Assembly: GCA_051881895.1 (NCBI GenBank)
Contig: JBJEQT010000098.1
Span: 1 to 46,809 of the forward strand
From: Oscillospiraceae bacterium
GTDB taxonomy: Bacteria > Bacillota > Clostridia > Oscillospirales > Ruminococcaceae
DNA: 46,809 nt
Direction of reading: 5' to 3'
The notes beneath the pieces were generated by a model that saw only the letters and a program-made list of their open reading frames with translations, had not been told where the DNA came from and did no database searches. Made by a program: the position numbers and the translations under genes. Position 1 is the first letter of the stretch, and each line of letters opens with the position of its first letter. Shown here piece after piece: positions 31,983 through 35,242 of this stretch.

Positions 31983-32912
31983 TTAATCTTCAAACAAGGG
32001 TGTGGATAAATAACGATCGCCGGTATCAGGCAGCAGAACGACAATTGCCTTTCCCCTGTTTTCCGGGCGTTTGGCCAATTCTGTCGCGGCCCACACCGCT
32101 GCGCCGGAAGAGATCCCGGTCAATACGCCGTCGGTTCGGGCAATTTCTCTTCCGGTGGCAAAAGCCGCTTCATTGTCCACCGGTATGATTTCATCATAAA
32201 TTTGGGTATTCAGCGTATCCGGCACAAAGCCCGCACCGATTCCCTGAATTTTATGCGCACCGGCGATTCCTTTGGAAAGTACCGGTGAATCCGCCGGCTC
32301 TACCGCCACCACTTTGACTGCGGGATTTTGGGATTTCAAATACTCTCCTACACCGGTCAGGGTCCCGCCGGTTCCGACGCCGGCCACGAAAATGTCGACC
32401 TTGCCCTGCGTGTCCCGCCAGATTTCCGGACCCGTCGTCTGCCGGTGTGCCTGCGGATTGGCGGGATTTTTAAACTGTCCCGGGATGAAACTGCCCGGCG
32501 TCTGACGCGCCAGTTCCTCCGCTTTTTCGATGGCGCCTTTCATTCCTTTGGCGCCCTCGGTCAGCACAATTTCGGCACCGTAAGCCTTCAGCAGGATGCG
32601 GCGTTCCACGCTCATCGTCTCCGGCATCGTCAAAATGACGCGGTAGCCCTTGGCGGCGGCGATTGCTGCCAGGCCAATCCCCGTATTGCCGCTGGTCGGT
32701 TCGATGATGACAGAATCCGGGCGAAGGGCGCCGTCGGATTCCGCTTTTTCAATCATCGCTTTTGCAATACGGTCTTTTACGCTTCCGGCTGGATTCAAAA
32801 ATTCCAGTTTGGCGTAAATTTTCGCTTCCAGCTTTTCTTTCTGCTCATAGCCGGTCAATTCCAGCAGCGGAGTATTTCCCACAAGTTCGGTGATTTTTTG
32901 ATAGATTGCCAT
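31983..32912 (-). CDS. cysK: Cysteine synthase A (O-acetylserine sulfhydrylase)
   Basis: 309 aa. PLP-lysine motif [11 protein letters not shown], then [10 protein letters not shown] and [10 protein letters not shown]. Confidence 0.95.
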
Positions 32913-33037: not shown

Positions 33038-34348
33038 TTACTTTTGCACAGACGCTTCGAACGCCTGGTCCAGATCGTAAATGATATCGTTTACATGTTC
33101 CGTACCGATCGAAAGACGGATCGTATTCGGTTTGATTCCCTGATCCAGCAGTTCTTCGGGGCTGAGCTGGGAATGGGTCGTTGTCGCAGGATGGATGACC
33201 AGGCTTTTTACATCCGCAACGTTGGCCAACAAGGAAAAGACCTGCAGGCTGTCGATAAACCGGTGCGCTTCTTCCTGGCCTCCTTTGATCTCGAACGTAA
33301 AGATCGAACCGCCGCCGTTGGGGAAATATTTTTCATACAGCTCATGATCCGGATGATCCGGCAAGGACGGATGATTAACATGTTCCACCTGCGGATGATT
33401 TGCCAGATATTCCACTACTTTCTTGGTATTCTCCGCATGACGGTCCAGACGCAGAGAAAGCGTTTCTGTGCCCTGCAGCAGCAAAAATGCCGCGAAAGGA
33501 GAAATAGTGGCACCGGTATCCCGCAAAAGAATCGCCCGCACATAGGTGACAAAAGCGGCAGGGCCAACAGCATCTACAAAGGAGATTCCGTGATAGCTTG
33601 GGTTCGCGTCCGCGATCGGGGCATATTTGCCGCTGGCTTTCCAGTCAAACTTGCCGGAATCGACGATCACGCCGCCCAACGTTGTGCCGTGGCCGCCGAT
33701 AAATTTTGTGGCCGAATGGACCACAATATCCGCGCCATGTTCAATCGGCCGGACCCAATACGGTGTGCCAAAAGTATTGTCGATAACCAGCGGCAGACCG
33801 TGTTTATGTGCAATCGCGGCAATCGCGTCGATATCCGGGATATCGCTGTTGGGGTTGCCCAGCGTCTCGAGATAAACGGCCTTTGTATTGGGCTGGATGG
33901 CGTTTTCCAGCTCCTTTAGGTCATGGGCGTTGACAAAAGTCGTGCTGATGCCAAATTGCGGGAAAGTGTGAGCCAGCAAGTTAAACGTGCCGCCGTAGAT
34001 GGTTTTTTGCGCGACAATATGGTCGCCGTTTTGGGCCAGCGCCTGAATGGTATAGCTGATTGCGGCAGCACCGGAGGCGACTGCCAGCGCTGCAACGCCG
34101 CCCTCCAGGGCCGCAATGCGTTTTTCAAAAGCTTCCTGGGTAGAATTGGTCAGACGGCCGTAAATATTGCCGGCGTCGGACAATCCAAAGCGAGCCGCCG
34201 CATGGGCGGAGTTATGAAAAACATAGGATGTGGTGGCGTAAATCGGTACGGCGCGGGAGTCGGTGGCAGGGTCTGCTTGCTCCTGCCCTACATGAAGCTG
34301 CAACGTCTCAAACTGATATTGATGTTTTCCATTCAAAAAATCTGCCAT
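33038..34348 (-). CDS. metY: O-acetylhomoserine sulfhydrylase / aminocarboxypropyltransferase
   Basis: 436 aa in the Cys/Met-metabolism PLP family, with the lysine motif VHSATKFIGGHGT. RBS GAAGGAAAAG. Confidence 0.9.
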   Translation of the reverse strand: MADFLNGKHQYQFETLQLHVGQEQADPATDSRAVPIYATTSYVFHNSAHAAARFGLSDAGNIYGRLTNSTQEAFEKRIAALEGGVAALAVASGAAAISYTIQALAQNGDHIVAQKTIYGGTFNLLAHTFPQFGISTTFVNAHDLKELENAIQPNTKAVYLETLGNPNSDIPDIDAIAAIAHKHGLPLVIDNTFGTPYWVRPIEHGADIVVHSATKFIGGHGTTLGGVIVDSGKFDWKASGKYAPIADANPSYHGISFVDAVGPAAFVTYVRAILLRDTGATISPFAAFLLLQGTETLSLRLDRHAENTKKVVEYLANHPQVEHVNHPSLPDHPDHELYEKYFPNGGGSIFTFEIKGGQEEAHRFIDSLQVFSLLANVADVKSLVIHPATTTHSQLSPEELLDQGIKPNTIRLSIGTEHVNDIIYDLDQAFEASVQK

Positions 34349-34485
34349 TTTCTTTTCCTTCTTTCAAAAGCTTTTTGTCGTTTCATCTTATCTGCTCATC
34401 TTCGCCCTTTTACCGTCACATTCGATCATCCCACAGGGATTTTCGGAGTTTTTGCAAAGAATATCCGTTCATCCAAATGCCTCCT

Positions 34486-34522
34486 AAAAAACAAAAAAGC
34501 GGGAAAGCCTGCTGTTTCCCGC
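34486..34522 (-). terminator. Intrinsic terminator inside the metY leader (attenuator terminator)
   Basis: Minus strand GCGGGAAA (34522..34515), loop CAGCAGGC, TTTCCCGC (34506..34499), then TTTTTTGTTTTTT (34498..34486). It sits 29 nt after the leader-ORF stop and about 135 nt before the metY ATG. Confidence 0.8.
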
Positions 34523-34550
34523 TTACTTTGGTCATTGTGATTTCATCCGT

Positions 34551-34676
34551 TCAAAAACGTGTTTTCGAATCAGAAAAGAAGCTCTGAAATCCATCCAAGG
34601 CGCAGGAAATCGTGTACATGTTGCTGCACATGCACATACACATACACATTTTGCGGCCCGTCTGCAAAAAATACAT
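34551..34676 (-). CDS. Candidate attenuation leader peptide, 41 codons, Met/Cys-rich (MYFLQTGRKMCMCMCMCSNMYTISCALDGFQSFFSDSKTRF)
   Basis: Not in the ORF track because it is shorter than 60 aa. AAGGAG (34689..34684) is followed by 7 nt and ATG 34676, with stop TGA at 34553..34551. Codons 10-17 are ATG TGT ATG TGT ATG TGC ATG TGC. A consensus promoter lies upstream, and a terminator and the Met/Cys biosynthesis genes lie downstream. Confidence 0.6.
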   Translation of the reverse strand: MYFLQTGRKMCMCMCMCSNMYTISCALDGFQSFFSDSKTRF

Positions 34677-34723
34677 TGCGCTTCTCCTTTCTGATTTTCT
34701 TGTTTTCCTATTGGTTTACCAGG

Positions 34724-34752
34724 ATTATAGCATCCACCTATTCTTTTGTCAA
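34724..34752 (-). promoter_or_regulatory. Consensus sigma-A promoter of the metY leader/operon
   Basis: Minus strand TTGACA (34752..34747), 17-nt spacer, TGcTATAAT (extended -10; TATAAT at 34729..34724). Confidence 0.75.
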
Positions 34753-34770
34753 CAAGATTTTACTTTTTTC

Positions 34771-34799
34771 TTTACATAGATTTCCGATTGGTTTAATAT
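34771..34799 (+). promoter_or_regulatory. Probable promoter of the divergent Rrf2 regulator gene
   Basis: TTTACA (34771..34776), 17-nt spacer, TAATAT (34794..34799). It lies about 32 nt upstream of the ATG, back-to-back with the metY promoter, with the two -35 boxes 18 nt apart. Confidence 0.5.
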
Positions 34800-34831
34800 G
34801 TATAAAAGAACGTTCACGAAAGGGAAAGATT

Positions 34832-35242
34832 ATGAAAATATCCACCAAAGGGCGATACGCCCTGCGCATGATGATTGATTTGGCACAACAGCAAAAGGAG
34901 TCTGTCTTATCCTACATTCCTTTAAAGGATATCGCCTTTCGGCAGGGAATCGAAATCAAATATTTGGAGCAAATTGTGGCGCTTTTGAAAAAAGACGGGC
35001 TGATTCAAGGTGTGCGCGGCAGCAGCGGCGGATACCGTCTGACGAGGGAACCAAAGGAATACACCGTTCGGGAAATCCTTGAGGTAACGGAAGGCCGTCT
35101 CGCTCCCGTTGCCTGTTTGGATACCCCTGTCAATCTTTGTCCCCGCAAAGAACATTGCCCCACGCTGTCTTTTTGGGAAGACTTCGCTTCCTGCATCACT
35201 GATTTTTTGGAAAAATGGACGCTGCAGGACTTTTTGTCCTGA
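34832..35242 (+). CDS. Rrf2 family transcriptional regulator (IscR/CymR-like) with three-Cys cluster motif
   Basis: MKISTKGRYALRMMIDLA... winged HTH, then SSGGYRL. Cys ligand pattern is C-x7-C-x5-C (ACLDTPVNLCPRKEHC). RBS AAAGGGAAAG. The track ORF start at 34559 is a spurious upstream extension. Confidence 0.9.
   Translation: MKISTKGRYALRMMIDLAQQQKESVLSYIPLKDIAFRQGIEIKYLEQIVALLKKDGLIQGVRGSSGGYRLTREPKEYTVREILEVTEGRLAPVACLDTPVNLCPRKEHCPTLSFWEDFASCITDFLEKWTLQDFLS

Follow-up and report, generated by a model that had tools for sequence, protein, structure and literature searches.

Genes of methionine and cysteine metabolism in Firmicutes are usually controlled at the RNA level by S-box (SAM-I) riboswitches and by T-boxes for Met or Cys (PMC2965389). 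How the supply of these amino acids is sensed without such elements is the question raised by the metY-cysK operon of an uncultured gut Oscillospiraceae bacterium (assembly GCA_051881895.1, contig JBJEQT010000098.1), in which an intrinsic terminator lies ahead of metY. Positions 1 to 46,809 of this contig were analyzed as a whole and are referred to as the window; unless stated otherwise, calculations were made on its minus strand, and the evidence is computational. At gathering score, the whole window contains no match to an S-box, a T-box, or any other Rfam family, a scan of 34300..34800 at E <= 10 yielded only matches at chance level, and neither an S-box or T-box nor another Rfam element was found as metY leader in 36 related metY loci. 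The metY leader is likely to be a ribosome-mediated transcription attenuator of metY-cysK that would read the supply of charged Met-tRNA and Cys-tRNA. This reading builds on the observed sequence elements, on the mutual exclusivity of two helices, on the computed response of the fold to the position of a ribosome, on conservation, and on analogous leaders at other metY loci.

The leader is preceded by a promoter (34724..34752) in which TTGACA and TATAAT are separated by a 17-nt spacer and which agrees with the sigma-70 consensus at 12 of 12 positions and has an extended -10 (TGcTATAAT); transcription presumably starts near 34717. The first open reading frame (ORF) of the transcript, ORF1 (34551..34676), comprises 41 codons (MYFLQTGRKMCMCMCMCSNMYTISCALDGFQSFFSDSKTRF) and is preceded by the Shine-Dalgarno region AAAGGAGAAG (34681..34690), whose GGAG (34687..34684) is placed 7 nt ahead of the ATG at 34676 and is unchanged in 28 related sequences. 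ORF1 contains six Met and five Cys codons. Codons 10-17, (ATG TGY) x 4 at 34626..34649, encode the sequence MCMCMCMC and are the proposed stall site (segment 1). The ORF continues for another 24 codons beyond this run, through the strand that forms the antiterminator described below. Between the control codons and the structural genes, a terminator scan located an intrinsic terminator at 34484..34524 (segments 3:4; AAGCGGGAAA-cagcaggc-TTTCCCGCTT followed by TTTTTTGTTTTTT). Its hairpin (34524..34497) has ten pairs and is followed by a T-run (TTTTTTGTTTTT / TTTTTTGTTTTTT). This terminator belongs to the 5' leader of metY because no upstream gene on that strand could own it. The first regulated gene, metY (33038..34348), encodes an O-acetylhomoserine sulfhydrylase (Pfam Cys_Met_Meta_PP, E = 2e-138; named homologues), and the second (31983..32912) encodes a CysK-like, pyridoxal phosphate-dependent cysteine synthase (Pfam PALP, E = 5e-79). 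The control codons of ORF1 match the pathway products.

A preliminary description of this DNA, made from the sequence alone, had proposed that a strand within codons 23-27 of ORF1 pairs with the 5' arm of the terminator. Its strings and coordinates were all reproduced, namely TTTCCTGC at 34609..34602, GCGGGAAA at 34522..34515, TTGG at 34598..34595 and CCAA at 34531..34528, and likewise the two strands of a further hairpin upstream, TGTGCATGT (34636..34628) and ACATGTACA (34621..34613). As it had said, codons 23-25 encode Ile-Ser-Cys, and the antiterminator strand starts 16 nt past the last codon of the Met-Cys run. In the transcript, UUUCCUGC (34609-34602) and UUGG (34598-34595) pair with GCGGGAAA (34522-34515) and CCAA (34531-34528). 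The resulting helix, 34609..34595 : 34531..34515, excludes the terminator. The question posed in that description, whether folding energies ever favor this helix, was addressed with RNAfold, and in transcripts that lack the 3' arm of the terminator the helix is indeed part of the minimum-energy structure. The upstream hairpin of 9 bp (34636..34628 / 34621..34613) is present exactly as proposed in the minimum-energy fold ending before the terminator 3' arm. RNAfold even enlarges the antiterminator by the pairs G34601-U34525 and C34600-G34526, by a helix 34593..34585 : 34545..34536, and by an inner hairpin. The 5' strand of the complete antiterminator (segment 2) consequently spans 34585..34610, with the core at 34609..34595 and the extension helix at 34593..34585. 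Its 3' strand (segment 3) spans 34514..34545 and consists of the extension (34545..34536), the CCAA-AG-U part (34531..34525), and the terminator 5' arm (34522..34515).

The whole antiterminator domain (34612..34512) has a computed energy of -27.3 kcal/mol, compared with -14.3 kcal/mol for the terminator hairpin. The antiterminator duplex itself amounts to -15.8 kcal/mol, a value that is equalled in 3.4% of 2000 dinucleotide shuffles of the whole ORF and in 1% of the shuffles when only the 40 nt past the run are shuffled. On duplex energy alone, the helix is therefore above chance only moderately. A third pairing connects the Met-Cys run with segment 2 (-23.7 kcal/mol; p ~0.01 in shuffles). In the full-length fold of the window, this pairing takes the form of a 1:2 hairpin at 34598..34659 (34659..34632 : 34627..34598; -24.0 kcal/mol), in which the run is paired with 34627..34598 and thereby overlaps the antiterminator 5' strand, and the terminator forms.

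The influence of a translating ribosome was simulated by masking a footprint of 28 nt in transcripts ending before the terminator 3' arm, at 34513 or 34505. These shortened transcripts were used because the equilibrium fold of the full leader always gives the terminator, whatever the ribosome mask. With the A site on codons 11-16, the probability (P) of the antiterminator in the window is 0.82-0.94. With the ribosome at the stop codon it drops to 0.00, the antiterminator strand being then paired upstream (P = 0.68), and without a ribosome it is 0.29-0.62. The masked folds are thus in line with the proposal that a ribosome stalled in the run would leave the antiterminator strand free.

On this basis, the following sequence of events can be proposed. 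After initiation near 34717, ORF1 would be translated from its strong ribosome-binding site. When Met or Cys is scarce, the ribosome would stall within (AUG UGY)x4 at codons 10-17, and the free strand 34610..34585 would pair with 34545..34514 once the latter has been transcribed. The antiterminator would then sequester the 5' arm of the terminator, and RNA polymerase would read into ORF2, a second short ORF downstream of the terminator, and further into metY and cysK. When both amino acids are plentiful, the ribosome would proceed through codons 23-41 and would cover or melt the antiterminator 5' strand and the inner helices; in the variant found in the window, the Met-Cys segment would also re-pair with 34627..34598 behind the ribosome. 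The terminator (34524..34497) would consequently form, and transcription would stop in the T-run. In this model, translation of ORF1, stalling at the codons of the run, and a kinetic choice set by the timing relative to RNA polymerase are presumed steps.

The conservation of the leader was analyzed in a group of near-identical relatives, 27 loci that together with the window make 28 sequences with 19 distinct leader sequences. The MetY homologues in question form a group with 97-98% identity, from which identity drops straight to 91%. The closest MetY proteins are encoded in metagenome-assembled genomes of uncultured Oscillospiraceae/Ruminococcaceae, and an exact-protein look-up of the MetY of the window returned no record. 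ORF1 is present in all near-identical loci, with three or four Met-Cys units and with the frame kept, and the promoter is kept in the same-species loci as well. Only 2 of 137 positions (1.5%) differ from the window in the segment that extends from the Met-Cys run as far as the 5' arm of the terminator. By comparison, differences are found at 62 of 437 third codon positions of metY (14.2%), at 11 of 67 positions of the 5' untranslated region (5' UTR) and codons 1-9 (16%), and at 15% of the positions in the terminator loop and 3' side. Each of the two differences in the conserved stretch falls into the antiterminator helix and adds a G-C pair there. A34610G, the sole differing position in 34585..34610 among the 19 genotypes, pairs with C34514 in place of an A.C mismatch, and T34525C in the relatives turns the pair of G34601 with U into a G-C pair. 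Codons 26-41 of ORF1 show no change at all, and its synonymous sites vary no more than the remainder of the segment. This pattern indicates that the stretch from the run to the terminator arm is under strong purifying constraint acting at the level of the RNA.

The number of ATGTGY units at 34626..34649 is polymorphic within the species, three or four units being found when the window is compared with loci L082, L085, L089, L097, and L103. This variation resembles that of a microsatellite with a 6-nt unit that keeps the frame, and it could tune the sensitivity of the attenuator.

A BLASTN search of the window leader against 80 metY loci from GTDB gave matches at chance level only, and a protein search for homologues of the leader peptide found none, with no shared words. 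The element likewise has no counterpart in Rfam, Pfam, or NCBIfam. In two loci whose MetY is 91% identical to that of the window, L092 and L096, the same syntenic place is occupied by a different leader with one ORF, which in L096 stands beside an Rrf2 gene. The L096 leader (MNARMNHFCCCNRMPNSRT..) has three Cys codons ahead of an Arg-Met pair, and in L092 (..YSCDRMPNART at the end of the ORF) the Cys run is largely lost. This suggests a rapid turnover of control codons in these leaders.

Analogues were sought among 80 metY loci at species level (L001-L080). In three of them (L021, L027, and L036), a Met/Cys-rich ORF is followed by a terminator and a copy of ORF2 upstream of metY. The respective ORFs contain MKMYSMLCMMCIC.. 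/ MKMYSMLCMMCICEY.. in L021, ..MAMWMVMYMCAMYM.. / ..NMAMWMVMYMCAMYM.. with eight Met in L027, and ..MCACMCMCMLC.. in L036. All these runs share Met, in agreement with a methionine regulon. When the ribosome is placed in the run, the 5' arm of the terminator in L021 and L027 is paired with upstream sequence at a probability of 0.7-0.8, compared with 0.05-0.18 when the ribosome is placed at the stop. Among 120 metagenome loci, no Met/Cys-run ORF was found upstream of canonical ORF2 copies, and the ORF1 type is therefore rare.

The conserved stretch of 137 nt could also be recognized by a small-molecule ligand or by an RNA-binding protein acting in trans, for example with the four AUGUGY hexamers bound in a manner resembling TRAP and with ORF1 being incidental. 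The behavior of the synonymous sites and the unchanged codons 26-41 are what would be expected of an element acting at the RNA level, and the run is a perfect 6-nt repeat with a copy number of three or four. Against such a regulator stand the strong and correctly spaced Shine-Dalgarno sequence, the preserved frame, and codons that match the pathway products. Furthermore, the leaders of L021, L027, and L036 are rich in Met and Cys without having the hexamer repeat, the Rfam scan at E <= 10 found nothing beyond chance level, and the adjacent regulatory gene encodes a DNA-binding regulator of the Rrf2 family, no candidate gene for an RNA-binding protein being adjacent. Control by a protein or ligand is therefore considered unlikely.

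Several results weigh against the attenuator and define the form in which it can be maintained. Covariation in homologous leaders, which the preliminary description had suggested as a check, was obtained only in part. The two one-sided changes improve the helix, but no two-sided covariation could be found among true orthologues because these are too alike (98% MetY identity), the next best homologues being 91% identical. A cross-lineage matrix of duplexes between antiterminator regions and terminator arms gave no distinction between own partners and those of other lineages, as the G/C-rich arms pair with either, and L036 is an ambiguous analogue, as its folding is not changed by the position of the ribosome. 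An anti-antiterminator formed by 34658..34645 and 34614..34599 had also been proposed. It is not a conserved feature, since no part of the leader varies more than the one that holds its 5' strand (16%; codons 6-9), which changes at the neutral rate. It does form in the window's own fold, but the majority genotype of the species (L081, L082) has lost this pairing, the lower 1:2 stem. Conservation of the 1:2 hairpin is confined to its upper part, in which the run is paired with ACAUGUACAC, and does not extend to the lower part, by which the antiterminator strand is sequestered. The antiterminator of the majority genotype has a probability of 1.0 without a ribosome and still of 0.77-0.89 when the ribosome is at the stop codon, and it is present in the minimum-energy fold of the full-length leader. 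In the window, P(terminator) is 0.9 at full-length equilibrium whatever the position of the ribosome. Thermodynamics alone thus gives no switch, and the model needs a timing of transcription and translation.

The terminator winning at full-length equilibrium means that the switch must be kinetic. In classical attenuators, the terminator also wins at equilibrium, and the decision is a kinetic one. The complete 1:2 / 2:3 / 3:4 logic of such attenuators, as first proposed for this leader, therefore applies to the variant in the window but is not conserved within the species. According to the folding model, the conserved logic is two-state, with the ribosome either stalled upstream of the antiterminator strand or running over it. 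As the lower 1:2 stem is absent from the majority genotype, only a ribosome translating codons 23-41 can block the antiterminator there.

The T-run of the terminator is followed after 11 nt by ORF2 (34416..34485; MNGYSLQKLRKSLWDDRM), which has an AGGAGG Shine-Dalgarno sequence at 34485..34480 and an ATG at 34472, terminates with CGA-ATG-TGA at 34424..34416, and ends 67 nt ahead of metY. ORF2 belongs to a widespread family of 18-codon leader ORFs, defined here by the consensus x3-[YI]-F-x2-L-[LVI]-R-x-N-F-R-x-G-R-M, and about 45 of the 80 metY loci have a short ORF bearing ..L-[LVI]-R-x-N-F-R-x-G-R-M... Canonical copies occupy the same place, between terminator and metY, in L021, L027, and L036. 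The ORF2 of the window has the length of the family, the residues L9-R10, and a Met at codon 18 that is preceded by Arg encoded as CGA (it ends GAT CGA ATG TGA). It lacks the family core N12-F13-R14-x-G16, having S-L-W-D-D there, and agreement is confined to L9, R10, R17, and M18 (and Y4). Judged from these residues, ORF2 is a copy that has diverged or is decaying, and it is not canonical for the family.

Counting from an ATG, 27 of 31 canonical copies have the conserved Met at codon 18, and in 28 of 31 leaders the Arg ahead of it is encoded by CGA. No Arg codon is rarer than CGA in the adjacent metY genes (6 of 386), and five or six different codons are used at the other Arg positions of the peptide. 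Since R10, R14, G16, N12, and L8 are encoded by many synonymous codons, selection acts on the peptide. Met18 is followed by a Cys codon in 15 copies, by an Arg codon in six, and by a stop in four, and many tails are rich in Cys (CRCCI or YLCCC ahead of the stop). In some leaders of the Faecalibacterium-like type, the CGA-ATG unit is doubled or tripled. A scan of metagenomes with a nucleotide motif yielded 120 loci (L114-L233), mostly containing such ORFs. The gene downstream of the family ORFs is mostly metY, and NlpA/MetQ lipoproteins, MetN-type ABC ATPases with a NIL domain, and URO-D-family and ThiF-family proteins are encoded there as well. The hosts are gut Oscillospiraceae, Lachnospiraceae, Faecalibacterium-like bacteria, and Treponema. 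By this gene neighborhood, the 18-codon ORF is a leader of the methionine regulon. The family peptides match no Pfam or NCBIfam family, 36 related metY loci yielded no Rfam family for it, and a literature search for the peptide motif found no paper containing it. A second leader of the Cys-Arg-Met type (..MFYCRMCTSRAY..) was observed at L005:2281-2427 (minus), where it points away from metY to another gene. At L017:1975-2131 and L184:5603-5759 the leader precedes a ThiF-family gene, which in L017 is located upstream of metY.

Many members of the family have no terminator. In those that do, a strand CUCCCGGRC.. starts 6 nt past the AUG (+12 from the first base of CGA) and pairs with the terminator 5' arm GYCCGGGAG. 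This pairing shows covariation in the leaders with one ORF (alignment A1, comprising L002, L005, L006, L008, L009, L019, L053, L058, L061, L063, L065, L079, L096, and others). Of 13 pairs, with 89% of the cells paired, five pairs were changed on both sides, and the observed covariation was reached in none of 500 shuffles and by no slid control. When a ribosome has its P site on CGA and its A site on AUG, its leading edge falls at the antiterminator. Together with the rarity of CGA, this geometry suggests a sensitized sensor for Met based on a single codon. It is tentatively proposed, and with more doubt than confidence, that two sensors, both based on the ribosome, follow one another in the metY leader. 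The ORF2 family would then be a new type of amino acid sensor, in which a conserved nascent peptide and the slow CGA/AUG pair would make one Met codon report Met-tRNA, or in which translation would be arrested on free Met or S-adenosylmethionine as in TnaC or SpeFL. ORF1 would be a derived copy in which this device has been replaced by the Met-Cys run. In either form, such a sensor would follow a principle different from that of a classical codon run. A derivation of ORF1 from a family member bearing a terminator is speculation based on its sequence. The N-terminus of ORF1 (MYFLQ..) resembles the canonical MKNYFLQLLRR.. of L005, and in the variant of ORF1 with three repeats the Met after the run is codon 18.

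The presence of ORF2 also bears on the possibility that ORF1 senses Met and Cys but mainly governs translation or Rho-dependent termination of ORF2 and metY rather than acting through the antiterminator helix. ORF2 lies close behind the T-run and belongs to a conserved family with many members lacking a terminator, and the Cys upstream ORFs (uORFs) of mycobacteria act translationally (bioRxiv 10.1101/834739). In the window, however, a canonical intrinsic terminator stands between the two ORFs, and the antiterminator strand pairs with its 5' arm. No structure able to sequester the Shine-Dalgarno sequence of metY was found in the spacer between ORF2 and metY, which has no significant structure (z = +0.94). 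This form of control is regarded as highly improbable.

A further layer of control may act at the metY promoter, next to which a regulator of the Rrf2 family (Pfam Rrf2, E = 6e-33) is encoded divergently at 34832..35242 on the plus strand. Upstream of metY in more than 40 of the 80 species, including loci without a leader ORF, a 17-bp palindrome CCTATTGACAwrGTAGG (CCTA-N9-TAGG) covers the -35 box. The pattern also matches 9 of 80 coding-sequence controls. The palindrome was found in L004, L007, L015, L021, L023, L026, L030, L032-L034, L037, L038, L040, L048, L052, L053, L057, L058, L063-L065, L071, L073, L076, L078, and others, and the window has a near-match, CCTGGTAAACCAATAGG, at 34710..34726. 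CCTA-N9-TAGG probably serves as operator for a methionine-regulon transcription factor, for which the neighboring Rrf2 protein is a candidate.

With such an operator, metY could be controlled at the promoter only, by the Rrf2 neighbor or another factor binding CCTA-N9-TAGG, and the terminator could be constitutive and partly leaky, its complementarity to ORF1 being fortuitous. The conservation of the palindrome in more than half of the metY loci with the near-match at 34726..34710, the chance level of about 1-3% for the duplex alone, and the lack of conservation of the anti-antiterminator are compatible with this explanation. It leaves unexplained why a Met/Cys run is placed exactly upstream, why divergence is tenfold lower across both antiterminator strands, and why the two substitutions point in the same direction. 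Nor does it explain that L021 and L027 show the same architecture or that the equivalent helix covaries in related leaders, and fortuitous complementarity is considered very unlikely. Ribosome-mediated attenuation accounts better than any of these alternatives for the Met/Cys codon content, the pattern of constraint, and the recurrent architecture.

The synteny of metY and cysK is preserved in L081-L113. Two known riboswitches occur near metY in other loci, a cobalamin riboswitch at L096:369-586 (minus) and a thiamine pyrophosphate (TPP) riboswitch at L040:2642-2747 (minus); both are located on the opposite strand and are unrelated to the leader.

The proposed mechanism resembles that of the trp, his, leu, thr, ilv, and pheA attenuators of enterobacteria (reviewed in PMC1183508), in which a short promoter-proximal ORF contains a run of codons for the end product, the terminator 5' arm alternatively pairs with an upstream strand freed by a stalled ribosome, and the decision is kinetic. 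The metY leader differs in its alternating Met and Cys control codons, in its host from the Clostridia class of the Firmicutes, in an ORF that goes on for 24 codons past the run, and in a 1:2 anti-antiterminator that is not conserved even among members of one species. The two are unrelated in sequence and in Rfam. S-boxes and T-boxes share with the metY leader the position in the 5' leader, the output by terminator versus antiterminator, and the pathway. The metY leader has no aptamer, specifier loop, or T-box, and sensing would be performed by the translating ribosome; an identity as S-box or T-box is ruled out by the lack of a covariance-model match. His leader peptides upstream of hisS/hisZ paralogues in bacilli, described as regular leader peptides and as a novelty in Firmicutes (PMC2965389), are a further case in which a leader-peptide attenuator takes the place of a T-box in Firmicutes, for another amino acid, with other genes, and with an unrelated sequence.

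Short upstream ORFs that sense the charging of Cys-tRNA through Cys codons and control genes of sulfur or cysteine metabolism are known from the polycysteine uORFs of mycobacteria (Ms5788A and others; bioRxiv 10.1101/834739) and have been predicted as Cys leader ORFs in Actinobacteria (PMC1262725). The mycobacterial uORFs are leaderless, have no terminator but consecutive Cys codons at the end of the ORF, which pair with the downstream Shine-Dalgarno sequence, and act translationally by unmasking the latter; their authors stated that cysteine uORF-mediated attenuation had not previously been described (bioRxiv 10.1101/834739). The actinobacterial Cys leaders are also without terminators (PMC1262725). 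ORF1 is ruled out as a uORF of the mycobacterial type by its 5' UTR and Shine-Dalgarno sequence, its run mixed with Met in the middle of the ORF, and the intrinsic terminator. Upstream of metNIQ in Streptomyces lividans TK24, a leader peptide metL (MSTTSDRTPATEATTTPGARCMCRRMCAF), the only leader of the Met type that was found, has been predicted, for which the authors reported no typical Rho-independent terminator and an unclear mode of termination (PMC8079986). Like ORF1, metL is a short ORF interleaving Met and Cys codons (C-M-C and R-M-C in metL) ahead of an operon of the methionine regulon. Unlike ORF1, it is leaderless and actinobacterial and has no defined antiterminator, and a sequence relationship is not detectable. 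A literature search for Met or Cys leader-peptide attenuators in Clostridia gave nothing beyond the actinobacterial cases, and no description of a terminator-coupled attenuator based on Met codons was found, the nearest being the mycobacterial poly-Cys uORFs and the metL of Streptomyces. Thus, the mechanism is a familiar one, and it is its Met-Cys specificity and its host group for which no description was found.

Met and Cys are the textbook case for the use of S-box riboswitches and T-boxes rather than leader peptides in Firmicutes. If the proposed attenuator is correct, abundant gut Clostridia control the synthesis of sulfur amino acids by ribosome stalling, which would explain the absence of a known riboswitch ahead of metY in this clade and would provide a simple and transplantable switch responding to Met and Cys. 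The 18-codon leader family exposed by the metY locus may matter more than the ORF1 attenuator itself. With its conserved peptide, its rare codon and Met at the end, and its distribution across the methionine regulon, this family would offer a testable case of an amino acid sensor based on a single codon.

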